Counted from the first letter of the stretch, positions 7,417 through 31,400 are shown. The stretch is DNA of 64,000 bases from an uncultured Clostridium sp. (GCA_947569365.1 CANOSM010000006.1:11296-75295), one strand, 5' to 3'. Notes: a model not told the origin generated them from the sequence alone. Numbers and translations are program-made.

Positions 7417-7443
7417 GTTTTAAATATTTATCTACTTTTAAAT

Positions 7444-10993: not shown

Positions 10994-11000
10994 TTAGTCG

Positions 11001-11032: not shown

Positions 11033-11037
11033 AAGCC

Positions 11038-11067
11038 AAAAAAATCTGTGTATTCGTGGTACACAGA
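11038..11067 (-). terminator. intrinsic terminator (minus strand) downstream of tRNA-Thr copy 2
   Basis: The minus strand reads TCTGTGTA-ccacgaa-TACACAGA followed by TTTTTTT. Confidence 0.6.
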
Positions 11068-11203
11068 CGACTAAATTGAACAACTGCGATTCAATGTTCA
11101 TTTATTTTGTAATTAAATAATAACACATTATTTTGATTTTGTCAAACAATTTTGAAAAATTAATATGAAAAAATATACATTATTAAATTTTGATTAAACA
11201 TTT

Positions 11204-11259
11204 GCAAAAATAAAAGCCAGCAATCAAGACTATTTCAAGACTACTGACAATATTGGAGC
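11204..11259. repeat. 56-bp direct repeat, right copy (overlaps the 3' end of tRNA-Thr copy 2)
   Basis: Identical to 9866-9921. Confidence 0.9.
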
Positions 11260-11330
11260 CACTTCCCAGATTCGAACTGGGGACCCCCGCATTACAAGTG
11301 CGGTGCTCTGGCCAGCTGAGCTAAAGTGGC
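11254..11330 (-). tRNA. tRNA-Thr (anticodon TGT), copy 2
   Basis: Cloverleaf with anticodon loop CTTGTAA and T-loop TTCGAAT, CCA encoded. Confidence 0.9.
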
Positions 11331-11344
11331 ATATCCTATGAAAT

Positions 11345-11419
11345 TGGTGACCCGTACGGGAATCGAACCCATGTCTCCGCCGTGAAAGGGCGGTGTCTTA
11401 ACCGCTTGACCAACGGGCC
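11345..11419 (-). tRNA. tRNA-Glu (anticodon TTC)
   Basis: The reverse complement is GGCCCGTTGGTCAAGCGGTTAAGACACCGCCCTTTCACGGCGGAGACATGGGTTCGATTCCCGTACGGGTCACCA, with anticodon loop CTTTCAC. Confidence 0.9.
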
Positions 11420-11462
11420 TTATATACAAAGAACTAAATAATCAATTATTATTTAGTTCTTT

Positions 11463-11538
11463 TGGTGAGCTATCCGCGACTCGAACGCGGGACAACTTGA
11501 TTAAAAGTCAAGTGCTCTACCACCTGAGCTAATAGCCC
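11463..11538 (-). tRNA. tRNA-Lys (anticodon TTT)
   Basis: The reverse complement is GGGCTATTAGCTCAGGTGGTAGAGCACTTGACTTTTAATCAAGTTGTCCCGCGTTCGAGTCGCGGATAGCTCACCA, with anticodon loop CTTTTAA. Confidence 0.9.
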
Positions 11539-11588
11539 ATATATAAATATAAAAGCGTTAGCGAATGCTAATTCGTAACTGCTTTTAT

Positions 11589-13509: not shown

Positions 13510-14586
13510 TTATAATACCTCTAATCCAGTTTCTATAACCTTCTCCATTGTTTCCTTATCAAATATTCCTTGCTTATATTTTTCTATAACTATTTTTGTA
13601 AAAACACCTTTTATATCATTTTTTAGGATAATTTCATCTATATTATAAGTCATCTTCGTATCATCTTTTATTTTTACAATATTTTCTTTTGTTATTAATT
13701 TCTCTATTTCTTTTATATCTATTATAAAATTTCTATTCCCAATTAATAAAATCTTATATAAATAATTTTCTTTTAAATTTATTTCTTCTATTTTCTCTAT
13801 TATATCTTCATTTGACAAACACTCTGAAATGTCTAACTTATAACACTCATATTTTCTAGTATCCAATCTTATAAATTCTAATTTTAAGTCTTTTTTACTT
13901 AAGTCTCCAAATATCATTCCATGTTCTCCTGGTTCATCAAATCCAAATGATATAGTAGACCCTGGATATACTATTCTTTGTTTCTTCTCATCATTATATG
14001 ACTTTTTATGAATATGACCTAATGCAATATAATCAAACCCTAATTCCTTTAATTTTTTACTTGACATTGGATTATATTGTCTAAATTCATCATTTCCTCC
14101 ATCTACACTACCATGTACTAACAATATGTTTAATTTAGATTTATTTTCTATTTTTATATTTTCTACCACATCTTGTTTACAATAATAATCTCCAAATCCA
14201 TATCCATATATGTCTACATCCTCTAACTCTATTTTCTCTATATTATTTTTAAATATATGGACATTTTCACTCCATTCAAATGTATTATTATAAAAAGAGT
14301 TTTTTATAAATGGATCGTGATTTCCTGGTGAGATGAATATATTTACATCTGGTATCTCTCTAAATAATCTATTTATATACTCTATACTTGATCTTCTAAT
14401 ATATTCTTGTTCATACATGTCTCCTGCTATAAATAAAAATTTTATCTCATTCTCTTTTATATAATTTACTATATCATTTATTATTTTTCTTTGTTCTAGT
14501 CTTCTTTTTTCTGGAAGCCCATTTATCTTAGATAGATTATTAAAACATGCATCCAAATGCATATCTGCTATATGTATAAATTTCAT
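13510..14586 (-). CDS. yhaO: SbcD/YhaO-like metallophosphoesterase (DNA repair exonuclease)
   Basis: Calcineurin-like motifs HIADMHLD, GDMYE, GNHD and GHIH. Tightly linked (2-nt gap) to the downstream ATPase. Confidence 0.8.
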   Translation of the reverse strand: MKFIHIADMHLDACFNNLSKINGLPEKRRLEQRKIINDIVNYIKENEIKFLFIAGDMYEQEYIRRSSIEYINRLFREIPDVNIFISPGNHDPFIKNSFYNNTFEWSENVHIFKNNIEKIELEDVDIYGYGFGDYYCKQDVVENIKIENKSKLNILLVHGSVDGGNDEFRQYNPMSSKKLKELGFDYIALGHIHKKSYNDEKKQRIVYPGSTISFGFDEPGEHGMIFGDLSKKDLKLEFIRLDTRKYECYKLDISECLSNEDIIEKIEEINLKENYLYKILLIGNRNFIIDIKEIEKLITKENIVKIKDDTKMTYNIDEIILKNDIKGVFTKIVIEKYKQGIFDKETMEKVIETGLEVL

Positions 14587-14670: not shown

Positions 14671-16696
14671 TTAATCATTACTTTCTACTGAACCAAATAA
14701 TTCATCAAATTTAGCTTCTAATTCTTTTTGTATATCTGTTAGTTCATCTTTTTTATTATCTAATACTTGCTCTTGTTTTTGCTCTTCTCTTACTTCTTGA
14801 TTTGAATCCATTTTTAATTCTTCTGTTTTAGGTGTATCTACATTATTTGATTTATCTTCATTTTTGTTATCATCTTCTTCAAATAAATCATCTAATTCTT
14901 CTATTTTTAGTTCTTCTTTCTCTTCGTGTTCCACATATGGATTATATGGATTAAATTTTCTATATACGCCTCTATCTGGTATTTCCCTAGTATTATGATC
15001 AACTGCATATGGAGATATTATTTTTACTGTATTATATTTATAATAGTAATACTTTCTAGCTCTAATTGGTTTTAGCCCTTTTTCGTAAATAATACAATCA
15101 TCAACATCCAGTCTTCTAAGTTCATCTGGCGTTAACAATGCTCTTGCCATATTCTGTTCTGATACGCTTTTACCTTGTTTCCAATCATCTTTATCTTTAT
15201 TTACTGATTCACTTTCTCTAAATATTGTTTTTTCTCCAAGAGCTTTTGAAAAATATTCAACAGTTTTTTGTGAGTTACTTCCTAAGAATAAGTGAGTATC
15301 ACAGTTACCCATAATAGTTTCATTAGATTCTTTATATACAGCTTCTAACTGATCTAAGTTCTGTAAAATAACACTAAATGAGATTTTTCTACTTCTTGAT
15401 GTAGAAATCTTTTTATCAAAATCTGGTATCTTTCCAATATTAGCAAACTCATCTAAAATAAAATATGTAGGTACAGGAAGTGCTCCTCCTTTTTCATCAG
15501 CAAAGTCATATAATTGTTGTATCATTTGTGAGAAAAATATTGTAAGTAAAAAGTCATATGCAGCATGAGTGTCAGATGATATAACATATACTGCTGTCTT
15601 TTCTTCTCCTATTTTTTTAAAATCTATTGTATTTGTTGATGTTAATGCTTCAATTTCTTTTGAATCAAATTTACCAAGTTTTGATTGAAGTGATGATAAA
15701 ATTGATCCATATGTTTTTTCTGGAGCAACTTCAATAGACTTATAGTTCATTCTTGCTGGATGGTCATATGGTAACTGATTAATTAAATTTGTAAGTAAGT
15801 TATCTCCTCCATTACTATTTGCTGCTCTAACTAATTCTGAACAACTTGCTAAACTTTGCTCTTCTGGTGGTCTAACAGCTTTCAAATAATATATTAATGC
15901 TTTAAGTAGCATTTCGGCCATATCATCCCAGAATGGATCTGATGCATTTGCTGTATTTTGTCCCTTTACTATAGTATTTGCTACAACATCTACATCAATT
16001 TCATTTTTAATATGTAATAATGGATTATATCCATCACTATTTTGTGGTCTTACTAAATTTAAAACTTTTATTTTATATCCCTTTGATTCCAAATAACCAG
16101 CTGTTTTATCATAAAGTTCTCCCTTTGGATCTGTAAATACATATGAACCTAATAATTGACATGCATTTGGAATAACATAAGATGCAGATTTACCAGCACC
16201 AGATCCGTCCAACAACTAGAACATTGACATTTCCTCTTTTATCTACAGGCAGATATTCTCTCTCAGCTAAAATTATTCCTTTTTTATTACTTAATGTCTT
16301 ATACTCTTCTCCATTTACGCACCAATCACTTGAACCATTTTCTATTCCATCATATTCATGTTTTGGTAGTGCTTTTGTAATTCCTATTGTTATTGCAAAA
16401 ATATACACTAAGCTAAATTTCCATAGTGTACTAAAGAATATACCATTTGTTTCTCCTGATAGAGCATTTCCTAATGCTACAAATGGGTTCATTATATATT
16501 TTGCGATTCCATTAAAAAAAGCTTCCCATGCTGGACCACCATTTATTCCTAAAGGACCAACTAATAATCCCTCATAAATAGAATTAGCAAGTGGTGCAAC
16601 AAGAACTATGACTAGTATTAGCCATAATATGAAGCTTACAATTAACTTATTCTTTATCTTCTTAATAGCTTTACCTATTTTTTCCCATATATTCAT
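14671..16696 (-). pseudogene. VirD4/TraG-family type IV coupling protein, interrupted by a frameshift within the Walker A region (about 16205-16208)
   Basis: The N-terminal ORF (two TM helices, ...NVNVLVVG) ends RIWCW*. The other frame continues GSGAGKSASYVIPN (P-loop), the Walker B YFILDEFANIG and the TraG-D_C-like LFLGSN. The two pieces abut at GTTGTTGGA-C-GGATCTGGT, so one extra nt or two missing. Confidence 0.8.
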
Positions 16697-16733
16697 ATAA
16701 AATCACCTTTTCATTAGTACTTTTGTATATATC

Positions 16734-17108
16734 TTATCTTCCATCATCTTTGTTACGACTATTATTATCTGATGGTGAAGGCATTTCGGCTATTCTCCTC
16801 TTCTCTGCTGCCTCTTCTTCTAATTGTTGCTGTGTTGTCTTTGTAGAAACAACTTTCTTTACTCCATCTTTTGTTATGTGCTGTGGCTTTTTTCCTTTTT
16901 TATCCATTTGTGTTGCATCTGATATTACAATAGCATCACCATTTTCACCATGTTCATTTATTTTTTTACTTGGAACTATGTCCATATGTGCCACATCTGG
17001 TGTTCCACACCTATTTAGTTGTATTTCTGTTAGATTTCCCTCCAACCCGTCAACAATTATTACAGTAGCCTCATCTGTTGATATATTCTTTTTGTTGTCG
17101 TTTTCCAT
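16734..17108 (-). CDS. hypothetical protein (charged, K/E/D-rich C-terminus)
   Basis: 124-aa ORF, co-oriented with and 37 nt upstream of the coupling-protein gene. RBS GAAAGGAGAT upstream. Confidence 0.5.
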   Translation of the reverse strand: MENDNKKNISTDEATVIIVDGLEGNLTEIQLNRCGTPDVAHMDIVPSKKINEHGENGDAIVISDATQMDKKGKKPQHITKDGVKKVVSTKTTQQQLEEEAAEKRRIAEMPSPSDNNSRNKDDGR

Positions 17109-17127
17109 TACATATCTCCTTTCGATA

Positions 17128-17658
17128 TTAATCGTAATTGTTTTCTTTTATTTCAAATACTACATAACTTTTTCCAGCTTTTAATTTACATTTGCCTTTT
17201 ATCTCATTAGTTTCTTTATCTAAATATAAAGTTGGTTTCATCTCTTCTGTTGTCTCTGGATCTATAATTGTCATTGGTCTTTTTAAATTTGGTGTATATG
17301 CAAATTCTCTAAATTCTGTTTCTTCTTCATTATATATAGTTTTACAATTCATTGGTATTGGTTTATTAGAGATCTTTACCATGTTAGTATTAGTTTCTAA
17401 ATAACCCACATTTAACACAACCTTTTCTTTTCCAAAAGAAAAGATTACTAATTGATTTCCATCTTCATGTGGATCATATATGAAAAACGTTTTTTTTACA
17501 TTATTGCCTACTAATTCCTTAGTATAATCGAGTCTTTCTATTGTAAACTTGGGATTGTCTTTTAAAAATTCTTTTTCTGTTTTATTTACTTTATATATTA
17601 CAGTATTGATATTTTTGGGTTCTGTAATACTAAAGTGTTTTCCAAAACTTTCTTCCAT
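17128..17658 (-). CDS. hypothetical protein
   Basis: 176-aa ORF, first gene of the unit. RBS AGAGGTG upstream. No recognisable motif. Confidence 0.5.
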   Translation of the reverse strand: MEESFGKHFSITEPKNINTVIYKVNKTEKEFLKDNPKFTIERLDYTKELVGNNVKKTFFIYDPHEDGNQLVIFSFGKEKVVLNVGYLETNTNMVKISNKPIPMNCKTIYNEEETEFREFAYTPNLKRPMTIIDPETTEEMKPTLYLDKETNEIKGKCKLKAGKSYVVFEIKENNYD

Positions 17659-17774: not shown

Positions 17775-18674
17775 CTATAGTCTAGGATTGAATTTACTTA
17801 TCTGTTGCATTTTTTTGAACAATTCTTCTTCTTCTTTAGATAATTCTTTAGGAATTGAAATATTAGCTTTAACTACCAAGTCTCCTCTTACTCCTTCTTT
17901 GTTTTTATAACCCATATTCTTTATTATTATCTCTTCTCCTGATTGAATACCTTTTGGAATATTTAGAGTTATATCATCCTCTATACCTGCAACTACTAAT
18001 TTTGTACTTAATGCTGCTTCCCATGGTGAAATGTTTATATTGGTTTTTAAATTTAATCCCTCTAATTCAAGTCTCGAATTGTTCTTTATTACTATATTTA
18101 TGATTAAATCTCCATCTTTACCACCATTTATTCCTTTTTTCCCTTGACCTATAAGACGTATTTTTTCATTATTTTGAATTCCTTTTGGAATTTTAACATT
18201 AAATGTTTTAGTGTTTCCATCTATATTCTTAAGAGAAATACTCTTTTCTTTTCCAAAGAAAGCATCTACAATTGAAATTTCTATTTCTGTTTCTATATTT
18301 TCTCCTTTTTTAGGAGTTTTTATCTTTATTTTTTTATCTAATTTTATATCTTTATCTTCTAATTTATTTCCAAAAAACATATTAAAAAAGTCTTTTGGCT
18401 TTGCTGTTATATTCTTCTCACTTATATTATAAGCTTTTTTCTTTCTTCCTATATAATAGTTCCAACTTCTATCATATTTTCTTTTAGAAGATGTTTTAGA
18501 TAATATTTGATATGCCTCGCTTATTTCCTTAAACTTTTCTTCTGAAATTCTATCTTCTTTATTTAAATCAGGGTGGTATTTCTTAGCAGAATCTCTATAT
18601 GCAATTTTTATATCTTCTAAACTTACTTTATTAGTTTCTAATCCTAATATTTTATAATAATCTTTAAATATCAT
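17775..18674 (-). CDS. cbpA: J-domain co-chaperone, CbpA-like (J domain plus DnaJ C-terminal domains, no zinc finger)
   Basis: DYYKILGL...YHPDLNK (HPD motif). C-terminal DnaJ_C-like beta domains (GENIETEIEISIVDAFFG..., GDLIINIVI, GDLVVKANI). No CxxCxGxG repeats. Confidence 0.75.
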   Translation of the reverse strand: MIFKDYYKILGLETNKVSLEDIKIAYRDSAKKYHPDLNKEDRISEEKFKEISEAYQILSKTSSKRKYDRSWNYYIGRKKKAYNISEKNITAKPKDFFNMFFGNKLEDKDIKLDKKIKIKTPKKGENIETEIEISIVDAFFGKEKSISLKNIDGNTKTFNVKIPKGIQNNEKIRLIGQGKKGINGGKDGDLIINIVIKNNSRLELEGLNLKTNINISPWEAALSTKLVVAGIEDDITLNIPKGIQSGEEIIIKNMGYKNKEGVRGDLVVKANISIPKELSKEEEELFKKMQQISKFNPRL

Positions 18675-18826: not shown

Positions 18827-19390
18827 TTAACTATTTAAATAATTATTTCTCAATTCTATTGAACTAATATGTATACATTTGTTCATTTTGATCATACGCT
18901 CTATTGTTCTATTTAAAAAATATAATACTGCTTTGTCTAAATTTTCTCTTGCTAGTTCTTTTCCATATTCTACTCCATCCCATATTCTATCATCTGCAGT
19001 TGAATCTGCTACATAAATAATCTTAGCTAATCTATTCATTCCTACTTTTCCAGTAGTATGATATTCAATTGCCTTTCCCATATCTTCTGTAAATCCTAAT
19101 TTCTTAATAGATATATCCTTTCCAATTTTCGCATGTAATAACTCAGGATTTTTTCTTTCTATTTCATCAATTTCAATATTATTTTTTTCACAATATTCTA
19201 TTTTTTCATCTGCTGGTATTTCTTTTGCTATATCATGTGCTATTCCTACTAAAGCAGCAATATTTTCATCTTCTTCATATATTCTTGCAAGCTCAATACT
19301 TTCATTTTTAACATTTACTGAATGTTTATATCTCTTCTCTGATAAGGTTTCTCTTATAATTTTCTCTACTTCTGAAATATTCTTCAACAT
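18827..19390 (-). CDS. yqeK: HD-domain bis(5'-nucleosyl)-tetraphosphatase, YqeK family
   Basis: RYKHSVNV...GIAHDIAKE...LLHAKIG...IEYHTTG...IIYVADS pattern of YqeK-type HD hydrolases. Confidence 0.75.
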   Translation of the reverse strand: MLKNISEVEKIIRETLSEKRYKHSVNVKNESIELARIYEEDENIAALVGIAHDIAKEIPADEKIEYCEKNNIEIDEIERKNPELLHAKIGKDISIKKLGFTEDMGKAIEYHTTGKVGMNRLAKIIYVADSTADDRIWDGVEYGKELARENLDKAVLYFLNRTIERMIKMNKCIHISSIELRNNYLNS

Positions 19391-19529: not shown

Positions 19530-19560
19530 AAAGATTGAAGTAAAATAAACTCCAATCTTT
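19530..19560 (-). terminator. intrinsic terminator ending the essC-yukD-331aa unit
   Basis: The minus strand reads AAAGATTGGAG-tttattttac-TTCAATCTTT followed by a T-rich run. Confidence 0.55.
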
Positions 19561-19572
19561 ATAATAATAATT

Positions 19573-20568
19573 TTAGTAATCTAATTTCTTTAGTATAGCT
19601 ATTGCATCTTTTTGATCTGTGCTATACCCTTCTAAAGCAGTACAGAAGTTAGTTACAAGCTCGTTTAATCCTTTATCTATTTTTTCATGAAGTGCTCTAA
19701 GTGCTTCATCTATTGAACTTCTATCACTAAATCCCCAATATGATTCTGTACTTGTATTCTGGTATGCCTTCTTTATTGCTTTTCTAAATTCATCTGCAAA
19801 TGAATGAATAACATTTATCTTATTTTTGATATTTTCAGCTTCTTCTGCTAAATTTTCTTTATGACCGCCATCTGCTATAGTTGATTGTAAAATATGTCTT
19901 TTCCACTTTTGACAGTTCATTGGAGCTTCTTCCATTAATTGTGACCATGTTAGTCCCTTAAAATCCTTTTTTCCTTTATAAGTAGGATTATTTGCTAGTG
20001 CTGCTATTCTTCCTTGATAACTCTTATCCCACTTTTTAGAATTATCTTCATAATGATATTTTAACTCTCCTAATGGTACACAAACACCTAAATAAAATGC
20101 ACGACCTGCTCTTTGGCAAATTGCCTTTATTCTATCCTCTCCATCATAAGTATCATCTGAGTCTGATGCTACTATTGATAATTTTCTCATAGCTTTATCA
20201 TATTTTATTTTTCCTGATGCTCCTGCTGATGCACTTGATTGATTCCACCATTTTGCAAATACTTCTCCACTATTATCATTCCAGTATCCACCTCTACAAA
20301 CAATAGTATCTAAATAATCACCTAAGTCTATACAAGCTTTTATAGTATGATTATAAAGTTCAACTATATTATTAATTTGTGCTTTAGTAGCTGCAGCATC
20401 AGCAATCCACATCTTTCCTGATCCTCCTGTTGGTGTTCTTCCTAAGTTTCCTGATCCTCCTATTGGTGTTCCTCCTAATTTTCCTTCACTTACATTCCCT
20501 GTAGGTGCTTTCGGCCTTTTTCCTCCTTCGTCAAAGTCGAATAATGTCCATGTATCTGATTTTCCCAT
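19573..20568 (-). CDS. T7SS-linked 331-aa protein: N-terminal tandem Gly-rich repeat, WXG-like motif, helical C-terminal half
   Basis: RBS GAGAGGTAAA upstream. N-terminus GGTPIGGSGNLGRTPTGGSGK is encoded by a 33-bp tandem DNA repeat. Motif YWNDNSGEVFAKWWNQ resembles the W-x-G turn of WXG100/LXG-type substrates. Last gene of the essC unit. Confidence 0.6.
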   Translation of the reverse strand: MGKSDTWTLFDFDEGGKRPKAPTGNVSEGKLGGTPIGGSGNLGRTPTGGSGKMWIADAAATKAQINNIVELYNHTIKACIDLGDYLDTIVCRGGYWNDNSGEVFAKWWNQSSASAGASGKIKYDKAMRKLSIVASDSDDTYDGEDRIKAICQRAGRAFYLGVCVPLGELKYHYEDNSKKWDKSYQGRIAALANNPTYKGKKDFKGLTWSQLMEEAPMNCQKWKRHILQSTIADGGHKENLAEEAENIKNKINVIHSFADEFRKAIKKAYQNTSTESYWGFSDRSSIDEALRALHEKIDKGLNELVTNFCTALEGYSTDQKDAIAILKKLDY

Positions 20569-20707
20569 TATTTTACCTCTCTTCCTAAATGAAAATTTAT
20601 TTTTTATAATAACTCCATTTAATATTTTTTATTGTAATATATATATTTATTTTATACATATAATAATTTATTTAGTCAATAACTTTTATACATATTTTTG
20701 TCATTTT

Positions 20708-20974
20708 TTATACTAAAATAAGTTCTGTACCATTTTTTATTGAGGTTTCATATACTCTCATGTTTATATTATAAGCTTTAGCTGTTAACTTATTATATAA
20801 AATTGGTCTATTTTCTGGTAAATAATATCCTCCACTAAATTCACTAATCGCTTTTACCAATAAATCAATTACACTATATATTTTTCTATTAGTAGGTATC
20901 CAAATATCATATTTTTCTTCAATCTTAGGAACATATAGTTTAACTAATATCTTTTCCATACTATTCATCCTCAT
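20708..20974 (-). CDS. esaB: YukD/EsaB-family ubiquitin-like T7SS protein
   Basis: About 83-88 aa and overlaps the essC stop. The likely start is ATG at 20959 (MEKILVKLYVP), 8 nt after GAGGA. The size, beta-grasp-like alternating pattern and position after essC are typical of YukD/EsaB. Confidence 0.7.
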   Translation of the reverse strand: MRMNSMEKILVKLYVPKIEEKYDIWIPTNRKIYSVIDLLVKAISEFSGGYYLPENRPILYNKLTAKAYNINMRVYETSIKNGTELILV

Positions 20975-23900
20975 CTTCTGATTTTTCTTTCATTTCTAAT
21001 AATTTTATTAATACAGTCTTTCTATTTCTATTTAAGTAACCAAAACTACATCCACATTCGTTATATATCTCTTTTCTAGACATTTTTACTTCTATTATAT
21101 ATTGATCATCTATACCATTTCCTATCCAAAGTATATTATTTCCTGTATCATAATCTTTATACCAATCATCATAACTTCTGTCTTTTATCTTTCCTGAGTT
21201 ATCTACTATTATGAAACTGCCATTTTCATTCTCATTAACCTTTTTTACTAATCCTGAAAATTCTTCTTCACCATCTTCTAATTCATTTATAAATTTGTCA
21301 ACTCCAATGATAATACATAAAAAGAATTTATTTTTATCCTTAAATTCTCCTTTGAATTTTTCATATCTTTCTATTGCTATCTGCTTACTTCTATTATCTT
21401 TTTCATAATCTAGTATAATAATTTCCAAACCTGGTTCTTTTACAAATTTTAATTCTTCTATAATATTATTTATGTATTGTTGTGCATGCTCTAGTTCTAA
21501 TGATGTAATTATATTTATTGGATTTTCTTTAAAATTATAATTTAATATTTGAATATCTTTATTTTTTAGTCCTAATGGCACTTTGCTTAAATCAGTAATG
21601 TGCTTTTTCATATCTTCTAGTTTTAATTTTTCTGGTAATGTTTCTATTTCTGGTACTATCGAACTATCCTCTGCATTTATTCTTTCTATTTCTTCAGTTA
21701 TAAATACATTATAATCTTCTGCTGAACAAACTTTGGCACTCTGGAATTCATATACTCCTTCATCAATACAAACTAATCCTCTTCCAAATATATTTGATGG
21801 TTTTAAAAAGTTATTAGTATTAAATATTTCTGAGTATCCTAAATCGTTACTTAATAATAATGCTATTTTTTTAGGGAAGTTTTGAGATAATCTATACCTT
21901 AAATCGCTCTCATTACTTGTTATCGCCATAAACTTCATTCCATACTTTATTCCCTCTCTTGTTGCAGTAAGTAAAAATTCATCATATATATCTATATACT
22001 TTTCACTAAAGTTTTCGAATCCATTTATTATAGTTAAAATTAATGGCATTTTTTTACCACTACTTCTTAAATAAAAGTTATAATCTCCATTATATTCTGA
22101 CAAAGTCTCTTTTCTTTCTTTAAATTCTTTTTTCAACATAATGAAAAATCTGCCTATTTTTTCATAATCATTTGCTAAAATAACTTCTCCAATATGTGAG
22201 CTATTTCTAAATATTTTTAATGCTTCACTACCAAAATCTAATACATATGTCCATATATCTTCTACTGAATAATTTGATATAATATCATAAATAATTGTAC
22301 TTACTAATGTTTCTTTTCCACTGTCTGTTCTTCCATAAATAGCAACATTTGCATCCTTTGCTAAATTTATATCAACAATTCCCTGTTTTTGATTATATGG
22401 GTTATCATATTCTCCTAATGTAATATTCATTTTAGATGATTGTGGTTTAACTTTATACTTATTTTTCAGATCTTTTAAATAAATAGTATCTGGTATGTTA
22501 TCAAGCCAAAGTGGGTCCTCTTTTATATTTTCTTTTTTTGCTAGATCATACATATATTTAACAATATTCGTTAATTGATCTCCATCACTTTTTAAATTTG
22601 TTTTCGCATAATCATTTATTTCCTTTTTTATTATTCCTATATCAGAAATAAACTTTATTGAATTATCTTCTTCTCCTTTATTGACATTATTTATAAAATA
22701 CGGTGCTCCAGACCAACCAGATTGTCCTAAAGCAAAATATTCGTTATTTCCAACTTGTATATAGAAACGACCTGATTGTTTTATGTATGCAGCATCTGGT
22801 CTTTTTATTAAATCTGAACTATCTGACGTATCTTGAACTTTCAAGCAAACTGCAAACTTACTATTACTACGCATTTGATCATCAACAATACCACTTGGTT
22901 TTTGAGTTGCTAAAATAAGATGTACTCCTAAGCTACGACCAATTCTTGAAACACTTACAAGTTCATCCATAAAATCGGGTTGTTGTTGTTTAAGTTCAGC
23001 AAATTCATCACAAATAATTAACAGATGTGGTATTGGTTTATCTACAACACCATCTCTATATAATTTTTGATATTTATAAATATCAATAGTTCCTCCAGAT
23101 GTCTTATCCCTGGCTTCATTAAACAAAATTTGTCTTCTTTTAAGTTCACTATTAAAAGATGCAAGAGATCTTTTTAAATTTCCTGTATCAACATTAGTAA
23201 TAGTTCCTACTAAATGTGGTAATTTTACTTCATTTTTCTTAAATGCTCCTGCAAGTCCACCACCCTTATAATCTATAAGTACAAATGTAACATAGTCTGG
23301 ATGATAATTTAAAGCTAGAGATAATACATATGTTATTATAAATTCAGATTTTCCAGATCCTGTAGTTCCTGCAATTAATCCATGTGGTCCATGAAATTTC
23401 TCATGAATATCCAAATTAATTAATCTATTTGATGTATCAATTCCTATAGGAGCTGATAATGATAAAGTTGAATCATTATTATTCCATCTATTTTGGATAT
23501 TTAATTGTTCAACTGAGTTAACATTATACATATCTAAAAACGTATAATATTCTGGTAATTCTGCTTTTTCTATTGAATTGAATTTTATTTTTATATTAGA
23601 AATTACATTTATTATTCTATCAAAGAAAAACATATTATTCTTATCAAATTTAAACTCTTTCTTAAAATCTGATGTAGATTCACTCTTTACTACTTTTCCA
23701 GTATTTGATTTTAATTCTATAAAAGTCTCGCACTCTGTCGGTAATTCTTTAATATCATTTGCCATACATAAGATCCCAAATCCTAAATTATTATCTGATT
23801 TTAGAATTTCAGACACTATCTTTAGATTTTCTATCTTTCTATAATCATTTGTTATAATTAGATAATGCGGTACATGTCTTTTCTTATTTCCATTATTAGC

Positions 23901-25547
23901 TACATTATTATTTACTCTTTCTTTAAATTGTTCTTCTAAGTATTTTGAAACTTCATACATATCATCATAAGAATCTGCAAAAAATCTGAAATCTTTTGAA
24001 TCATTCCATACATATGGCAACATCTTAGCATATTCAAATTTACTTTTAGTATCTTCTTTTAATAAAAATACTAGTTTTAAGTCTTCATAACTTTGAAAAG
24101 CCATTAATTGTATAATTATATTCTCTATAAATTTCTTCATATTATTATTGTCTTTATCTATTATAGCAACCATGTTTTGCTCAGTAAATGAAAAAGTTAC
24201 AGGAACATTTTTTATAATCTTCATTTTGTCTACAAAATCATCTAACATATCTATTAGATCATCATTTTCCATAGCAAACTGTGCTTTCTGATATGAAACA
24301 TCTATATCAGCTGGCATATCTCCATTTCCTAAACTTACTTCCAAAAAGTCCTCATCATCACTTCTTTTTTCCCATAATCTATTTGAACGATTTAATATAA
24401 TTTTTGTACAATCTTCTGCCATTGCATAGGTTTCTATAAGAATCTCTTTTTGGTCATTTATAATATTATTTATTTCTGACTTTTTTTCTTCAAAATATTG
24501 TGTATATATTTTTCTACGCTTTTTTTCATAATCTTTCTTTACCTTTTTATCCCACTTCATGCTTAGAATTGGAATTAATAATGTCGTAAATATCATTAAT
24601 ACTGCCATTATAATTGAGATTACGCCCTGAAATCCTCTATATGTACCTGATATAACACCTTCTATTGTAGTAACAATATGAAGTATCGAAAACATTCCCA
24701 TAGAAAAAGTAGTACCAAATGTTAAAATCCATGGCATTTTATTTTCTTGTACTTTTTGTGGAGGAGGAACAATTTCCACCCTTCTATGTTCAATTTTCTT
24801 TGTTATTCTTGGTATTCTTGAAAAGTAAATTTCTGAATTTCTCTTTTTATCTATTTTTTCATCTCTATTTTCGTCTTTTTCTTCTACTTCCTCATTTTTT
24901 GTTTCATTTATACTAAAATATTTATTATTATATGTCACAGCATTTAATGGGTTATTAATAATTAAACTTTTCCCCATTATTATTATCTTTAGTCCCATTA
25001 TAAAAATAACATCACCATTAAATAGGATTTCTTTTCTTATTAATTTTCCATTAACCATTACACCATATTTCTTATCGCAGTTTTGAATCATCCATCTTCC
25101 ATTTATAAATAGCATTTTGGCATGTATGTTAGATACTAATGCATTATTATATAAAATGTGATTTGACTTTCCGCTTCCAATTAGAATTTCTGTTGTATTT
25201 TTTATGTCTAGGTGTATATAATTTTCCTCATACATTGGCATACAATAAAGTATATATATTTCGTCACTATTTTCAGAATGCATGCAATACATATTATGTT
25301 CTTTTAATGTTATTTGTTTAATTACTTTTATGTCATTATTTACACATATATTATCATTGTCTATTAGTAAACATTTTGGATTTATTATTTGCATTGATTC
25401 ATCACTGAAAACTTGGAACTCCTCTCCCTTTGCTTCAATCTTTAACAGTTTATTCTTGTTTTCGTCACAAACCCAGTATGTTCCTAATGGATTTTTAGGT
25501 AATATAGTTTTAAATATTGACTTTTTACTTATTAACATTACCTGCAT
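20961..25547 (-). CDS. essC: type VII secretion FtsK/SpoIIIE-family ATPase EssC/YukB
   Basis: 1528 aa. N-terminal FHA-like region, two TM helices, then three P-loop domains (D1 GTTGSGKSEF with LLIICDEFAEL; D2 GRTDSGKETL; degenerate D3). Confidence 0.9.
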   Translation of the reverse strand: MQVMLISKKSIFKTILPKNPLGTYWVCDENKNKLLKIEAKGEEFQVFSDESMQIINPKCLLIDNDNICVNNDIKVIKQITLKEHNMYCMHSENSDEIYILYCMPMYEENYIHLDIKNTTEILIGSGKSNHILYNNALVSNIHAKMLFINGRWMIQNCDKKYGVMVNGKLIRKEILFNGDVIFIMGLKIIIMGKSLIINNPLNAVTYNNKYFSINETKNEEVEEKDENRDEKIDKKRNSEIYFSRIPRITKKIEHRRVEIVPPPQKVQENKMPWILTFGTTFSMGMFSILHIVTTIEGVISGTYRGFQGVISIIMAVLMIFTTLLIPILSMKWDKKVKKDYEKKRRKIYTQYFEEKKSEINNIINDQKEILIETYAMAEDCTKIILNRSNRLWEKRSDDEDFLEVSLGNGDMPADIDVSYQKAQFAMENDDLIDMLDDFVDKMKIIKNVPVTFSFTEQNMVAIIDKDNNNMKKFIENIIIQLMAFQSYEDLKLVFLLKEDTKSKFEYAKMLPYVWNDSKDFRFFADSYDDMYEVSKYLEEQFKERVNNNVANNGNKKRHVPHYLIITNDYRKIENLKIVSEILKSDNNLGFGILCMANDIKELPTECETFIELKSNTGKVVKSESTSDFKKEFKFDKNNMFFFDRIINVISNIKIKFNSIEKAELPEYYTFLDMYNVNSVEQLNIQNRWNNNDSTLSLSAPIGIDTSNRLINLDIHEKFHGPHGLIAGTTGSGKSEFIITYVLSLALNYHPDYVTFVLIDYKGGGLAGAFKKNEVKLPHLVGTITNVDTGNLKRSLASFNSELKRRQILFNEARDKTSGGTIDIYKYQKLYRDGVVDKPIPHLLIICDEFAELKQQQPDFMDELVSVSRIGRSLGVHLILATQKPSGIVDDQMRSNSKFAVCLKVQDTSDSSDLIKRPDAAYIKQSGRFYIQVGNNEYFALGQSGWSGAPYFINNVNKGEEDNSIKFISDIGIIKKEINDYAKTNLKSDGDQLTNIVKYMYDLAKKENIKEDPLWLDNIPDTIYLKDLKNKYKVKPQSSKMNITLGEYDNPYNQKQGIVDINLAKDANVAIYGRTDSGKETLVSTIIYDIISNYSVEDIWTYVLDFGSEALKIFRNSSHIGEVILANDYEKIGRFFIMLKKEFKERKETLSEYNGDYNFYLRSSGKKMPLILTIINGFENFSEKYIDIYDEFLLTATREGIKYGMKFMAITSNESDLRYRLSQNFPKKIALLLSNDLGYSEIFNTNNFLKPSNIFGRGLVCIDEGVYEFQSAKVCSAEDYNVFITEEIERINAEDSSIVPEIETLPEKLKLEDMKKHITDLSKVPLGLKNKDIQILNYNFKENPINIITSLELEHAQQYINNIIEELKFVKEPGLEIIILDYEKDNRSKQIAIERYEKFKGEFKDKNKFFLCIIIGVDKFINELEDGEEEFSGLVKKVNENENGSFIIVDNSGKIKDRSYDDWYKDYDTGNNILWIGNGIDDQYIIEVKMSRKEIYNECGCSFGYLNRNRKTVLIKLLEMKEKSEDEDE

Positions 25548-25743
25548 TGAATTGCACCTTCCTCAATTGTTATATATATTTATACAATTTAATTATTATG
25601 TTTTTTATATATAAAGTCAAATAACATTTTATAATAAATAATACTTTTCTTTATAAAATACTTGCGGATGTATAATTTTCAGGTATATATTACAAATTAA
25701 TATAATTTTCATTACTTTTATATTTTTAATATAAGTATAAAAT

Positions 25744-25789: not shown

Positions 25790-28249
25790 TTAATTATTCT
25801 TTAATTCAAATTTCTCTATTTTTGCCATTTCTATTAGTCTATCTATCAAATCTTTGTATTTTATCCCAGACTCTTCAAATAATTTAGGATACATACTTAT
25901 ATTTGTAAAACCTGGTAAAGTATTTATTTCATTTAGTATTATTTTATTTGTCTTATCTTCTATAAAAAAATCTACTCTTGATAATCCCTTTCCACTTACT
26001 GCCTTAAATGCCTTTATTGCAATTCTTTTTATTTCTTTTTCTATAGATTTGTCTATATGGGCTGGTATAATAGTTCTTGATTCTTTATTTTCATATTTTG
26101 CTTCATAGCTATAAAATGTGTCTGCGGCTAGAACTTCTCCTGTACATGATGCAATTACATCATTATTTCCAAGAACAGCACATTCTATTTCTCTACCAGT
26201 AACTCCTTGTTCTATTATTATTTTATAATCATAATTAACTGCATATTTAATTCCAGAAATTAATTCTTCTGAATTTGTAGCTTTTGTTACTCCTATTGAT
26301 GATCCTGCATTCGAAGGTTTTATAAACATTGGATAATCTAAATTTTCCTCTATTATTTTAATTAAATTATCAATTAATACTTCCTTTTCATTTAATTTAT
26401 CATCAATATATAAGTATTTATCATCTATTTTCTTTATCCATATGTATTTTGCTTGTTTAATTCCTGCATTTTTTAGTATTTCTTTAGTAAACACCTTATC
26501 CATACAGATAGAAGATGATAATACTCCACAACCTACATATGGTTTTTTCATCATTTCGAATATTCCCTGCACACAACCATCTTCACCAAATGCTCCATGT
26601 AGTACTGGAAATATAACATCACAATCTTCGATTGAACTCATTAGATTTGATACTTTTTTTAAATCACACATTTCTAATTTTTCTATATTACTATTTTCTC
26701 CAATATACTCAAAAGTTTCTCCTTGTTTACTTATATATATTGTTTTTATTTTATATTTATCTTTATCTATATTATCTAATATTGACTTTCCTGATTTAAT
26801 TGATACATCATGCTCAGATGACATACCACCTATAATAACTCCAATCTTACGTTTTCCCTTTACTTGATTATATATCTCACCAAATTTCATACTATTTGAT
26901 GCTTTTAATAACACTTTATCTCCCCTTTCCATAATATTATTAAGTACATTTGCAGCTTCATTATTGTTATTACATGTATATACTTTATCTTTATTCATTC
27001 CCATATTTATAGCTTCTTTTGAAATATATTTCGCATCTTCTCCAACTGTTACTAATATATTAACTTTTTGTTTATATACTTCTTTTCCTACTTTTTCATG
27101 TAATTCTTGTGAAAATCCTCCCAATTCTTTAATATCACCAAGAACTGCTATTTTTCTTCCTTCTTTTAATGACATTAAATATTCTAATCCTGGTTTTATT
27201 GATTCATAGCTTGCGTTATAATAGTCTTTTATCAAAGTTATGTCTTTTCTAATTTTTTCGCAGTCTAGTCTATTGACAGTCATTTTAGTATTTTCTAAAC
27301 CTTCTTTAGCACTTTCTATAGAAATTCCAAGCTCTATTCCAACAGCAATAGCGGATAATGCATTCATTACGAATGGTTCTCCTGGTTTAGAAGTGTACAA
27401 TGTATATTCCCTGTTATTTTCTCTTATTTTAAATTTACTTTTATTTTCAAAATGTTCTACATCATATCCTTTTACATCCGAATTTGAGATACTACCAAAA
27501 GTCCTTGTTCTTATTTTATTATTTTTTTCATTGTTCCATTTATTAAGCAAATCATTATCATTATTTAATATAAGAATTCCATCTTTCTTCATTCCTTCTA
27601 ATATTTCCATTTTAGCTTTTAGTATATTCTCTCTTGAACCAAGAATTCCTATATGAGATGTTCCTATATTAGAAATAACTGCAATAGTAGGTTTAGCTAT
27701 GTTTGTTAATTCTCTAATTTCTCCAAAATGATTCATTCCCATTTCAACAACTAAAGCTTCATGATCCTTTAATTTTAGTATAGTCAATGGTAATCCTATA
27801 CTATTATTAAAATTACCTTCTGTTTTTAATACTTTATATTTTTGAGATATAACACTTGCAATAGCATCTTTTGTACTTGTTTTTCCAACACTTCCTGTTA
27901 TAGCAATCACTGGTATATCATATAAAGTTCTTTTATATGTTGCTAATTTTATCAAGGCTTTTCTATTATCTTTTGTCTTTACAAGTGTTAATTTTTTATT
28001 ATTATATTTTTTTATTTCTGTATCTGTTAATTTAATATCTTCTACTAGACATATTCTAGCTCCACTTTCAAAAGCTATATTACAATATAAATTCCCATTA
28101 TTTGTTTCACCTTTAATTGCTATAAAAGTATCTCCTTCTTTTATTTTCCTTGTGTCTGTTGATACATCAATAATTTCGTCATCTGCGTTTCCGAAAATGA
28201 TTTCTCCTTCAATTATCTTTAATACATCTTTAATTTTTATATTCTTCAT
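25790..28249 (-). CDS. bifunctional fusion: UDP-MurNAc-pentapeptide synthetase (MurF) fused to D-alanine--D-alanine ligase (Ddl)
   Basis: The N-terminal ~455 aa have Mur ligase motifs (ITGSVGKTSTKD, NNSIGLPLT, EMGMNHFGEI). The C-terminal ~360 aa begin KIGVIIGGMSSEHDVSIKSG and carry the ATP-grasp Ddl pattern (FPVLHGAFGEDG, FIKPSNAGSSIG, NEINTLPGFT). One uninterrupted frame. The probable start is ATG 28249, because the track start GTG at 28258 lies inside the RBS. Confidence 0.85.
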   Translation of the reverse strand: MKNIKIKDVLKIIEGEIIFGNADDEIIDVSTDTRKIKEGDTFIAIKGETNNGNLYCNIAFESGARICLVEDIKLTDTEIKKYNNKKLTLVKTKDNRKALIKLATYKRTLYDIPVIAITGSVGKTSTKDAIASVISQKYKVLKTEGNFNNSIGLPLTILKLKDHEALVVEMGMNHFGEIRELTNIAKPTIAVISNIGTSHIGILGSRENILKAKMEILEGMKKDGILILNNDNDLLNKWNNEKNNKIRTRTFGSISNSDVKGYDVEHFENKSKFKIRENNREYTLYTSKPGEPFVMNALSAIAVGIELGISIESAKEGLENTKMTVNRLDCEKIRKDITLIKDYYNASYESIKPGLEYLMSLKEGRKIAVLGDIKELGGFSQELHEKVGKEVYKQKVNILVTVGEDAKYISKEAINMGMNKDKVYTCNNNNEAANVLNNIMERGDKVLLKASNSMKFGEIYNQVKGKRKIGVIIGGMSSEHDVSIKSGKSILDNIDKDKYKIKTIYISKQGETFEYIGENSNIEKLEMCDLKKVSNLMSSIEDCDVIFPVLHGAFGEDGCVQGIFEMMKKPYVGCGVLSSSICMDKVFTKEILKNAGIKQAKYIWIKKIDDKYLYIDDKLNEKEVLIDNLIKIIEENLDYPMFIKPSNAGSSIGVTKATNSEELISGIKYAVNYDYKIIIEQGVTGREIECAVLGNNDVIASCTGEVLAADTFYSYEAKYENKESRTIIPAHIDKSIEKEIKRIAIKAFKAVSGKGLSRVDFFIEDKTNKIILNEINTLPGFTNISMYPKLFEESGIKYKDLIDRLIEMAKIEKFELKNN

Positions 28250-28342
28250 AAAAATCACCTTATTTATTTCTATGATTTGTTATATATTAATATTCACAAA
28301 TTTTTTTAATCTTATCACTTTTTTTTATTTTTGTAAAATGTT

Positions 28343-28456: not shown

Positions 28457-31400
28457 TTATTTTTCTTCATCTTTTGTCTTTACTTCTTCAGCTTTAAAAT
28501 TTAGTCTTCTACTAAAGTATATTATTGCTAAAATATATACAAGTGCTATTATGGCTACTGCTGGAATCTTTTCAGTACCTGTTCCAACTGATACTATTAC
28601 TTCAATTTGATCACTATTATTATTTAAGTTTACTTCTTCAGCTTCAATATTATTCTCTGTTGATTCTATAGTTGTCTTGCTTACACGTGATCCCATTTTT
28701 GTAGTTCCAGTTTTCCAGTGTAATTTTATAATATATATTCTTGTCTCTCCTGGAAGAATTTCTTCTGTTTTTATTCTTGCTTCATTATTCTTTATACTCC
28801 ATCCAGGATTATCTTTTTCATACATTACAAATCCATTTGATATTTTTTCAAGTATATTTGCTTTTCCTTTAACTTCTCCAATATTTCTTACACGTATTGA
28901 ATACTCTATTTCAGCAGTTGATTTATTACTATTCTTCTTGCTTAATTCTGCTTTTATTGTTTTATCACTTGATACTTTTTTATGTTTTCCATCTATTACT
29001 AGTGATTTTACACTCTTCTCTAAGCTTATATCAAAGTTTAGTTTTCTATAATAATATACTACATTAACATCTCCTGCCATTATTCCTGTTGCATTGCTTG
29101 GTAATTCAATCAATTTCATATTCTTTATTTCTTTTGCTGCTGTTATATATTCCTCACCTTCGTATCCCGCCTGAATAATCTGTTCAGCAACTTCTTTATT
29201 TGTTGCTTTCTCAACAAATCTTACTGTTACTTTTGCTACTCTTGAATAATAGAATTTTATTACCTTTGTTTCACCAGGATCAAATACTCCCTCAAGATCT
29301 CCTTCTGACTCTAAGAAATCATAATTTTCAAAACTTCTTGGTTTTAATGAATATTTCTGAGCTTCAACACCATCTATTGTTTCAGTTTTAATTATATCTC
29401 CTGTATATTTATTTATACATTGTACAATTATTTGAGCATTTTTTACATAATAGTAATTTACTTCTATTACTTCCACTTTCATCTTTCCAGATTTATTTTC
29501 TGGATATTTGTCTTTAACTAATTGATATCCTGGGAATTCTTTTTCTGATGTTGTATATTCATCTCCCTCATATCCTTCATGTCTTGTTTCTGCTAATACT
29601 TTTCCACTTACCATATCAATATGTCTTTCAATTACACCACCAGAAATATGCATGTAATAGAATTGTACTAAGATTTCTGTTTTATAACTTCCATCACTAT
29701 TTACGATTATTTCCATTTCTCCTTCATCATTTTCTGGTCTCTTAACTAAATCATATCCTTCAAATTCCTTTGCTTCAGCAACATAGTGGTCTTTTTCATG
29801 TCCTTCTATAATTACATCTGCTATAATTTTCTTGTCATGAAGCTTATCTATATATTGTACTCTTACAGTAGTTCTTCTCTTGTAATAATATTTTACTTCT
29901 ATAAAGTCAACAGTGAATCTTCCTTCTTTATTAGTTGGATATTTTTCTTTATTTAAATCATATCCTTCAAATTTTCTCTCGTCAGTTACATATATGTCTC
30001 CTTCTTTTCCTTCATGTATTTCTTCATATAAGATTTCTCCTGTTATTTCATCAATATGTTTCTCAATTACACCTTCTGAGATATGTGAATAATAATATCT
30101 TACTATTATTTCTTCTTTTGTCATTGTTACTCTCTTAGCTCCTGGTGATTCTACTAAAACATATCCTGGAATTTCTCTAGCAACAGTCTCATATACATCT
30201 CCTTCAAGACCTTCTTTTACAGTTGTTCTTAGAACTTCTCCAGTTTCTTTATCTATATATTGAACTGTTACTTTCGTATTATATTTATAATAATATATTA
30301 CTTCTATTGTTCCTCTTGTCATATATCCTGATGTATTTTTTGTATTTTCTACATATGTGTAGTTTGCTATATTTCTTATATCTGTTGTATATTCTTTTCC
30401 TTCATATCCTTCAATTATTTCTGTATCTTTTATTTCTTCACCCGTTATTTGATCAACATATCTTACCTTAACTTGTGAATTCTTAGCATAGTAGTATATT
30501 CTTTCTTGTCCCTTCTCTGTATATATTCCTGTTTTATTAAATGGTTCTTCAATTAATGTATATCCAGAAATATCTTTTTTGTCACCAGTTACATCAAATG
30601 GATCTCCCACTTTTCCTGTTTTTATTACAATTTCGCTAATCTGTTCATTATTAGCTTTGTCAATGTATTTAACTTTTACTTGCCCATTTACATTAATTTC
30701 TGATGTACAATCAGCTATACTTTCTGATACTATATCTTGTGCTGGTAAATATAATCCAACTTTTGCATTATTTATCATTCTATCTTTTAGTAAATCTACA
30801 TCTTTATATAATAATGATATTTTCTTTACTATTTTAACTTTTTCAGGAACATTTACTCCTGTTTCAAATGTATTTATATTTCCTAAGTCTAAATCCCATA
30901 CTATGGTATTATCTGCTCTTGAATATGTTCCTCCATCTAATGTTGATTCTTTTTCAATTATTGGATATGGTAATTTATCTTCTAAGTATACACCTGCTTT
31001 TCCAATATAATTACTTATCATTGCTTCATATGTTAATGTATAAGTTACTTTATCTTTTGATGTTGTAAGTTCATCACTACTTACTTTAGTTAAAGTAGGT
31101 TCTAATACTTCTGTCCTTCTTAATTCATAGTAAACCTTTATTATAGTTCCACTTTCAACTGTATCTGGAACTGTTCCTGTACTTATTTTCTTATAGTCAT
31201 ATCCTTTATATTTGTTTGTTATATTTATTTTTTCTTTCTTTACGTCTATTATATCAGGTTGTAATATTTGAACTTCTTGTTCTACAATTTCAGTATCATT
31301 CTTTTGTTCTATTCCATCTTTATAATATTTTACTGTATAATTTAATGTTTTTGTATTATCTGGATCTATAATATAATATACCTTCATTATATTATCTTCT

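Follow-up and report, generated by a model that had tools for sequence, protein, structure and literature searches.

Among described type VII secretion systems (T7SSs), those that most resemble the locus reported here are T7SSb (the Ess/Yuk system of Staphylococcus, Bacillus and Listeria) and two simple Bacillota variants, T7SSf and T7SSg. Variants T7SSc to T7SSj were defined from RefSeq genomes (Garrett, Higginson and Palmer, 2024; PMC11217815), and the WXG100 protein TsxA, the ubiquitin-like TsxB and the ATPase TsxC form an almost universal T7SS core, to which each variant adds components of its own: kinases, PPM phosphatases, FHA proteins, the giant Ig-repeat protein TsxI, EspG-like chaperones, the TsgL propeller or the TsfV ATPase (PMC11217815). 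Even T7SSg, the simplest variant, still has TsgL, together with an ATPase without FHA domains (PMC11217815). In T7SSb, cryo-electron microscopy (cryo-EM) of YukB-YukC-YukD revealed that the FHA-containing N-terminal region of EssC contacts EssB and YukD, and that YukD binds the FHA, DUF and D1 regions of YukB (PMC12637312). Here we analyse a 64,000-nucleotide stretch of an uncultured Clostridium sp. (GCA_947569365.1 CANOSM010000006.1:11296-75295), referred to in its full length as the window, and describe at positions 19,530 to 25,547 an essC locus that probably represents a functional type VII-type export operon consisting of EssC/TsxC, a ubiquitin-like TsxB and a WXG100-related helical protein only.

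The locus comprises three open reading frames (ORFs) on the minus strand in the order essC, an 83-amino acid (aa) gene and a 331-aa gene (Table 1), flanked upstream by a murF-ddl fusion (25790-28258) and downstream by yqeK (18827-19390). These genes, their flanks and the terminator were all recovered where the initial annotation had placed them. The three genes look like one operon, because they are co-directional, a terminator-like hairpin begins 13 nt beyond the stop codon of the 331-aa gene, and yqeK, beyond this hairpin, is preceded by a perfect TTGACA-17-TATAAT. The ATG of the small gene lies 1 nt past the TAG stop of essC and a GAGGA Shine-Dalgarno sequence is found inside the essC end, which makes the translational coupling proposed in the initial annotation plausible. 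With an upstream start at 20974, the small ORF would be 88 aa long (20708-20974); gene callers and 21 aligned relatives instead begin at the ATG at 20959, which yields 83 aa. The promoter-like sequence upstream of essC is listed as a candidate only, because such matches are not enriched over shuffled sequences in the AT-rich region between murF-ddl and essC.

Table 1. Features of the three-gene operon; positions are counted from the first nucleotide of the window.
Feature	Position	Strand	Basis
essC (tsxC), 1528-aa membrane-bound FtsK/SpoIIIE-type T7SS ATPase	20961..25547	-	TIGR03928, YukB match
EssC FHA domain, aa 122-181	25005..25184	-	Pfam FHA, E=7.5e-10
Two predicted transmembrane helices of EssC, aa 273-292 and 301-333	24549..24731	-	Kyte-Doolittle scan
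D1 Walker A GTTGSGKS; Walker B DEF at aa 847-849	23346..23369	-	Translation, alignment
D2 degenerate Walker A GRTDSGKE; Walker B Asp to Asn at aa 1175	22311..22334	-	Alignment
tsxB-like gene, 83-aa predicted ubiquitin-like (beta-grasp) protein	20708..20959	-	AlphaFold2 fold, Foldseek, essC adjacency
331-aa helical protein, proposed clade-specific EsxA/TsxA equivalent and substrate	19573..20568	-	Family beside essC, AlphaFold2 model
N-terminal turn motif W-x-D-x-N-x3-F-A-x-W-W-N, aa 96-109	20242..20283	-	Alignments, translation
C-terminal WXG100-like helix-turn-helix, aa 245-321, YWGF/WWGF in turn	19606..19836	-	Alignment, hmmsearch, HHalign, translation
Intrinsic-terminator-like hairpin closing the operon	19530..19560	-	12-bp stem, 7-nt loop, T-rich tail
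Candidate sigma-70-like promoter TTGACT-17-AATAAT	25592..25620	-	10/12 positions match; in 242-nt murF-ddl/essC gap

By sequence, the 1528-aa protein is a T7SS ATPase of the EssC/EccC type. It scores 980.5 bits against TIGR03928 (T7_EssCb_Firm; cutoff 778.4) over aa 241-1387, and its best solved relative in a search of the PDB is Bacillus subtilis YukB (E=3.9e-130), with FtsK DNA translocases at only about 1e-11 (3e-11). The protein carries FtsK_SpoIIIE domains in Pfam, and the initial annotation had considered that it might group with SpoIIIE/FtsK translocases instead; the same figures rule out such an identity. An identical protein occurs on 10 contigs of public assemblies, one of them from SRR15604515, and further genes of the window map to assemblies ERZ14864629-31. 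Its predicted architecture is that of a full-length enzyme, with an FHA domain, two transmembrane (TM) helices, a DUF region and three P-loop domains, and with the catalytic motifs of D1 intact. The two helices are the sole predicted membrane segments of the operon, none being found in the 83-aa or the 331-aa protein. Window EssC was aligned with 65 full-length relatives, together with the Listeria and Bacillus mycoides proteins. The G-x-T-G-S-G-K-S and D-E-F motifs of D1 are invariant in 66/66 sequences of the lineage. The degeneration of D2 is lineage-wide, with Glu following the Walker A Lys in 60/66 and Asn in Walker B in 62/66, whereas K-S and D occupy these positions in EssC of Listeria and B. 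mycoides. D3 is without a Walker A motif, and Listeria EssC likewise has a Walker A match in D1 only. In the FHA domain, the arginine of the GR motif is replaced (GS) and SxxH is kept (SNIH); in our reading these are the phosphothreonine-binding positions.

Comparison with T7SSb reveals a shared scaffold and divergent ends. The order of elements in EssC (FHA, two TM helices, DUF, D1, D2, D3) is the same, D1 is 57% identical to that of Listeria EssC, a ubiquitin-like partner gene is common to both, and WXG100 and DUF4176 genes occur in loci related to that in the window. Identity to Listeria EssC falls to 20% in the DUF region and 20% in the FHA segment (aa 111-200), and two regions are essentially unrelated in sequence: aa 1-110 (8%) and D3, the substrate-recognising end of EssC (13%). 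The gene order also differs, the ubiquitin-like gene preceding EssB in T7SSb and following essC here, and the window's subclade has a 280-330-aa protein instead of EsxA. T7SSb also has EsaA, EssA and EssB, none of which is found in the window locus or in the loci of its relatives.

This absence was examined in the window and in related loci. A search for EssC over one genome per GTDB species yielded 73 loci, and ORFs were called and clustered in these and in loci fetched via the small protein, 76 of which carry essC (loci and protein clusters are given below as L and c numbers). In the window, 26 larger ORFs from 1 to 43 kb were scanned with Pfam, and precomputed Pfam annotation was used for 39-64 kb. 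Local hidden Markov models (HMMs) for EsxA, EsaA, EssA, EsaB, EssB and DUF4176 were built from T7SSb loci of Listeria monocytogenes and B. mycoides annotated by the Prokaryotic Genome Annotation Pipeline, and were run against 3781 ORFs of at least 45 aa from the window and 83 loci. An NCBIfam scan of 107 predicted membrane neighbours had been uninformative (364 families matched), and the local HMMs were used in its place. Neither Pfam nor the local HMMs revealed EssB, EsaA, EssA or a small WXG100 gene in the window; the initial annotation had noted their absence within at least 15 kb on either side, and this held across the full 64 kb in three checks. Over the whole set of ORFs the best E-values were 0.33 for EssB, and 0.24 for EsaA and 0.036 for EssA, both with bit scores at noise level. 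As positive controls, the EsxA probe gave matches down to about 1e-8 in related loci and 1e-11 in the distant Coriobacteriaceae locus L069, and the DUF4176 probe gave many, down to about 1e-21. EssB, EsaA and EssA were thus absent from the flanks of the 76 related essC loci (about 956 kb in total, with at least 5 kb on both sides in 36 loci), in which the WXG100 and DUF4176 probes do match. Moreover, no cluster of predicted membrane proteins near essC recurs in more than four loci.

The relatives share a small constant core. All 73 EssC loci come from metagenome-assembled genomes (MAGs) of uncultured gut bacteria assigned to Clostridia, Bacilli, "Tenericutes" or Erysipelotrichaceae, including Clostridium sp. 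CAG:245; their EssC proteins are 30% to 55% identical to that of the window, and none of the loci is from the same species. The comparison with relatives suggested in the initial annotation bears out its picture, in that the small gene adjoins essC in 71/76 loci, immediately downstream in 67 (usually overlapping) and immediately upstream in 4. Counted per essC gene (L038 has two), the remaining 7 cases are split essC ORFs or contig ends. Gene content beyond essC and the small gene is variable and includes WXG100 proteins (c169, E=2e-7, and c2, E=1.4e-12, a protein of about 209 aa in which the WXG100 stretch occurs twice), the DUF4176 protein c4 (E=3e-28), small helical proteins, putative toxins and, in a single subclade, the MinD/CbiA-like ATPase c9. 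Two MAGs hold two separate minimal loci each (L012 and L016; L024 and L071).

The 83-aa protein is modelled by AlphaFold2 with high confidence (pLDDT 95, pTM 0.83) in a beta-beta-alpha-beta-beta topology, and Foldseek matches the model to 217 structures of ubiquitin-like fold at E<=0.001; by TM-score (0.80-0.82), the ubiquitin-like EccD domains of ESX-1 and ESX-5 rank among the best. With YukD/EsaB (Pfam PF08817) and the EccD domain the protein has in common a beta-grasp of about 80 aa without a C-terminal Gly-Gly (its C-terminus is ELILV) and a genetic tie to the ATPase. In sequence it differs, similarity to YukD/EsaB being at noise level. The Pfam YukD model misses the window copy; YukD is nevertheless the only Pfam family reached by its relatives (5/22, best E=0.025, sub-threshold), and HHalign places a 'YD-x-x-IP' motif in register between the small protein and Listeria EsaB. 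From the predicted fold and the genetic context, not from sequence, we conclude that it is a highly divergent ubiquitin-like component of the TsxB/YukD type. The initial annotation had called the gene YukD-like; the modelled fold and the adjacency to essC agree with the name, which was overstated with respect to sequence support from Pfam or NCBIfam.

The third protein defines a family of its own. It matches no Pfam or NCBIfam family, even at E<=10, and because a word-indexed search of 5.8 billion proteins returned the 331-aa protein alone, an exhaustive HMMER scan of 1.84 billion representatives was needed to find its relatives. The scan gave a small family of 18 proteins, corresponding to clusters c10 and c21 and encountered only beside essC; most are 270-295 aa long and 25-33% identical. 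A PDB sequence search with the family profile found nothing relevant. The AlphaFold2 model (pTM 0.76) starts with a disordered leader rich in Gly, Pro and Thr (aa 1-49), followed by a bundle of long helices with a predicted beta-hairpin insert in the N-terminal half. Two Trp-containing motifs mark predicted turns. The motif at aa 96-109 lies between helices 58-89 and 99-112, and W96, D98, W107 and W108 are invariant in the family alignment; HHalign detects no significant similarity between this N-terminal half and WXG100. The YWGF/WWGF motif, with an invariant G279, lies between helices 240-269 and 284-328.

It is in the latter region that a relationship to WXG100 proteins emerges. A WXG100 profile that started from the EsxA proteins of Listeria and B. 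mycoides and was iterated over related loci gives E=0.0013 for the whole protein; aa 245-321 align to its positions 13-90, and the Trp is in register. Among window ORFs of 45 aa or more, no other gives a signal with this profile, even at E<1. In the other full-length family members fetched, the profile likewise matches best in this C-terminal region, and HHalign of the isolated C-terminal part of the family against the iterated profile gives 88.7% probability (E=2.6e-6). Comparison of the whole family with every WXG100-like cluster was negative throughout, and the Pfam WXG100 model does not match the protein and reaches one of 16 relatives at E=0.06. Because the signal of the iterated profile, in hmmsearch and in HHalign, is confined to the C-terminal part, we hold with moderate confidence that the protein is WXG100-related at its C-terminus and novel in its N-terminal half. 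Like WXG100/EsxA (Pfam PF06013), the C-terminal 80-100 aa would fold into a helix-turn-helix whose turn carries W-(W)-G, and the gene takes an esxA-like slot beside essC. Unlike EsxA, the protein is three times as large, has no Pfam WXG100 match, and has an N-terminal half with its own Trp motif, predicted beta-hairpin insert and disordered Gly-rich leader. It is reminiscent of tandem WXG100 proteins, such as the c2 protein with its two Pfam WXG100 stretches used in related subclades.

The strongest argument for a role of this protein in the system is that the type of WXG100-like gene varies in step with the subclade of EssC. A neighbour-joining tree of EssC places the window in a group with L018, L009, L013 and L011, which L024, L012, L010 and L070 join next; all 9 of these full-length proteins have, directly beside essC, a gene of c10, the cluster of the 331-aa protein, or of c21, which HHalign links to the 331-aa family (98% probability, E=5.6e-14). 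Two loci omitted from the tree for their split essC ORFs, L063 and L066, also carry c10 or c21 beside essC, which makes 11/11 loci of the subclade, the window included. With the exception of L018, these loci have no other WXG100 match at E<1e-3, and other EssC subclades carry c2, c3 or c27 WXG100 genes. The 331-aa protein is therefore likely to be the cognate WXG-type partner or substrate of EssC, that is, a TsxA equivalent, and no passenger gene. The statement in the initial annotation that a WXG100 gene is missing is thus literally true for a gene of about 100 aa, and it left unrecognised the WXG100-like C-terminus of this likely WXG100-type partner. Export of the protein as a toxin is argued against by the fact that no immunity-like gene follows.

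By its gene content, the operon matches none of the described variants. Beside the window's essC, Pfam finds none of the extra genes of T7SSc to T7SSj (TsxD, TsxF, TsxJ, TsxI, TsgL, EspG-like, TsfV), a giant MucBP protein encoded upstream being TsxI-like in topology only; kinase, PPM, DUF6382, DUF5050, vWA and AAA+ proteins are likewise missing from the operon and its flanks in Pfam scans of the window ORFs. T7SSf and T7SSg are similarly simple systems built around TsxA, TsxB and TsxC (PMC11217815). T7SSg has five proposed components only, but unlike the window it has a TsgC without FHA domains, TsgL (a DUF5050 propeller) and two small WXG100 proteins (PMC11217815). In the clostridial T7SSf, the FHA domains of TsfC partly conserve the phosphothreonine motifs, but the system differs in a PPM phosphatase, TsfJ (DUF6382 and FHA, two TM helices) and the TsfV ATPase (PMC11217815). 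The possibly similar MinD/CbiA-like c9 is found only in another EssC subclade, not in that of the window. A literature search returned no description of a T7SS made of A, B and C only, nor of the lineage of the window's MAG. Since the operon is without the variant-specific extras, no such system has been described and none of T7SSb to T7SSj has three parts only, we read it as a new, core-only T7SS variant by gene content, widespread in uncultured gut Firmicutes.

One scheme for how such a system could work combines these elements with structures of related ATPases. EssC would form a hexamer in which 12 TM helices line a membrane channel (cf. EccC cryo-EM, modelled YukB and ESX-5 structures). 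In the manner of YukD (PMC12637312), the ubiquitin-like protein would brace EssC at its FHA, DUF and D1 regions. The 331-aa protein would act as a single-chain, double-hairpin stand-in for the EsxA dimer, its C-terminal WXG-like hairpin being bound by the divergent D3, and ATP hydrolysis at D1 would drive its export, with the degenerate D2 and D3 serving as regulatory nucleotide-binding modules. The system would work without EssB, EsaA and EssA; at least, the locus does not encode them. The further proposal that a two-protein translocon (EssC and a ubiquitin-like brace) suffices for type VII secretion in uncultured gut Clostridia and Bacilli, with the EsxA dimer of this subclade replaced by a single-chain protein of 280-330 aa, goes beyond this; we put it forward tentatively, as an idea that may well fail.

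Several observations weigh against a self-sufficient three-gene system. EssB is essential in T7SSb, and window EssC retains the FHA domain, which in T7SSb is the EssB-binding part. EssB, EsaA, EssA or other partners could be encoded outside the sequence seen, and all relatives are MAGs. The 83-aa protein has no match in Pfam or NCBIfam, even at E<=10; the profile of its 22-member family found no PDB sequence, and HHalign of the family against two canonical EsaB proteins gives 3.7-6% probability. For the 331-aa protein, the link to WXG100 rests on the iterated profile and is a weak one, since HHalign of the C-terminal part against two canonical EsxA proteins alone is negative and Foldseek of the model against the PDB retrieves only generic helical bundles (E>0.25).

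The initial annotation had left two options, that the missing components are encoded elsewhere or that this is a minimal, non-canonical system, and the comparative evidence favours the latter: the relatives keep essC and the small gene, their flanks are without EssB, EsaA and EssA, and aa 1-110 of EssC, part of the FHA region through which the T7SSb protein contacts EssB, are only 8% identical to the Listeria protein. A dispersed T7SSb, with EssB, EsaA, EssA and a classical EsxA elsewhere on the chromosome, is nonetheless an alternative to be taken seriously, if an unlikely one. EssC passes the T7SSb-type equivalog TIGR03928 and has kept the N-terminal FHA domain that binds the EssB pseudokinase in T7SSb (PMC12637312), and the sequence seen amounts to the 64-kb window and extensions of about 13 kb. 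Yet the six genes are contiguous in annotated canonical loci, and 0/76 related loci show any of the three components in their flanks of about 956 kb. Against it also stand the low identity of EssC to that of Listeria at the N-terminus (8-20%) and in D3 (13%), and the EsxA replacement linked to essC that this subclade has of its own.

A system that is not truly three-component would also result if an envelope part had gone unrecognised, the candidate being the 2393-aa MucBP protein as an Ig-repeat wall conduit like TsdI, TseI, TsjI or EsaA. With an N-terminal signal or anchor (aa 5-35), 12 MucBP repeats, a C-terminal TM helix (aa 2353-2381) and no LPXTG, it has the topology of TsxI (PMC11217815); it lies on the same strand as essC, and giants with a C-terminal TM helix are encoded upstream of essC in L012 and L024 of the window's subclade and in L004. 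We regard this as improbable all the same, because housekeeping murF-ddl separates the gene from essC, such giants are found near essC in only about four loci, and Pfam finds no TsxD kinase, TsxH or TsxK in the window. Moreover, the C-termini of the giants resemble atypical sortase signals (TPPTG in L004; x-x-x-T-G, a hydrophobic stretch and a basic tail), so that they may be ordinary surface adhesins. Least credible is a decaying, non-functional remnant of a once complete T7SS. Signs of decay do exist among the relatives, L002 keeping the small gene with essC fragments only and L032, L036, L063, L066 and L067 having split or truncated essC ORFs. In the window, however, all three ORFs are intact, the catalytic motifs of D1 are invariant over 66 EssC proteins at 35-55% identity, the essC/small-gene overlap is conserved and the identical EssC recurs on 10 contigs. 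The layout spans the classes Clostridia and Bacilli, and its persistence across them argues for long-term selection. A functional three-gene export operon thus accounts best for the evidence.

Two of the related lineages deserve separate mention. In a CAG:245-like subclade (L021, L022, L025, L028, L037, L058, L064 and L072), the ubiquitin-like gene is always followed by c9, a MinD/ParA/CbiA-like P-loop protein of about 273 aa that may parallel the TadZ-like TsfV of T7SSf. Then come, usually, c15 (small, Ser/Asn-rich) and c16 (helical, about 550 aa), and in several loci c17 and a second WXG100 gene (c2). In L002 (GCA_947625895.1, 9497-10252), the intact 83-aa ubiquitin-like gene is preceded only by ORFs of 34 and 136 aa; the equivalent upstream ORF of the sister contig L003 clusters with C-terminal EssC fragments (c50), and an RVT_1 reverse transcriptase, an N6 methylase and a PDDEXK gene are found upstream in L002. 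This looks like decay of essC with retention of the small gene.

The surroundings of the operon contain housekeeping and conjugation-type genes. The window has about 26% G+C and contains the replication origin region (dnaA, dnaN, recF, gyrB and gyrA at 50-63 kb); its source is a spore-forming Firmicute, as YpeB and CoatF are encoded in it. Upstream of the operon, a single ORF of 822 aa encodes MurF (UDP-MurNAc-pentapeptide synthetase) fused to Ddl (D-Ala-D-Ala ligase) and so unites two consecutive steps of peptidoglycan precursor synthesis. The 2393-aa surface protein (28457-35638) is encoded two genes upstream of essC and ends in ...SVGTGTEKIPAVAIIALVYILAIIYFSRR..., without a canonical LPXTG; possible identities are an atypical sortase substrate and an envelope protein of the TsxI type.

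On the other side of the operon, a lone, split type IV coupling protein is encoded on the minus strand (14671-17658), in which the gene of a TraG/VirD4-like ATPase of 514 aa (14671-16215; Pfam T4SS-DNA_transf, 6e-82) is overlapped by that of a 168-aa protein with two TM helices (16190-16696). No other type IV secretion genes accompany it in the window. It is preceded by genes for proteins of 176 and 124 aa and a DnaJ/CbpA-like gene (17775-18674), and followed by genes for a Metallophos protein (13510-14586) and an AAA_27 protein (11645-13507), a pair that may be SbcCD-like. The block of DnaJ-like gene, c55, x, c56 and c57 is conserved in L035 and L036, and L011 has c55, x, c56 and c57, its contig ending before any c33. 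A functional link of the DnaJ-like/c55/c56/TraG-like block, which lies beside essC in these three loci, with essC was considered and rejected as a core association, because the block is part of a shared backbone (recR, MGDG synthase, ypeB) in which the essC cassette occupies varying positions.

Conjugation-type genes are also inserted by the origin, at 53060-56455 between gyrB (56919-58847) and gyrA (49629-52073). Besides a TraC-like gene (192 aa), they comprise two P-loop_TraG fragments of 269 and 277 aa and an ORF of 356 aa, called in one assembly as a 218-aa gene with a weak CbiA match. The same arrangement in the independent assemblies L082, L088 and L089 shows that the insert is no assembly artefact. 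The segment 43689-49583 looks like the remnant of an integrated element beside tRNA-Arg (43582-43658). In it, a second TrwB/TraG-like gene (571 aa, 44135-45850) adjoins a DUF1858 gene (43689-43871), and a pair of genes for DnaB_2 (321 aa) and DnaA-like/IstB (332 aa) proteins (47502-49583) ends about 45 bp from the 3' end of gyrA. A near-identical strain, L086, matches positions 1-11543 of the window at 99.99% and diverges fully after a tRNA-Thr/Thr/Glu/Lys cluster (window 11543, L086 14860), beyond which it has a different pair of DUF1858 and TrwB/TraG-like genes. This tRNA-cluster junction is strain-variable and lies 8 kb from the T7SS operon; tRNA-Thr(TGT) is duplicated there (10633-10709 and 11254-11330).

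In conclusion, this locus extends the 2024 catalogue of T7SSs, which was based on RefSeq isolates, to uncultured gut lineages, the layout being present in more than 70 species-level genomes, and it defines a new essC-linked protein family that is a possible functional replacement of EsxA. The identity of the channel and the role of the accessory membrane proteins are debated in the T7SS field. If our interpretation is correct, three genes in about 6 kb would provide a compact system for reconstitution and cryo-EM and a test of the EssC hexamer alone as the pore, and EssB/EsaA/EssA or EccB/EccD/EccE would be lineage-specific additions rather than mechanistic necessities. The stripped-down layout found in these gut bacteria may then be the simplest natural version of the type VII machine.

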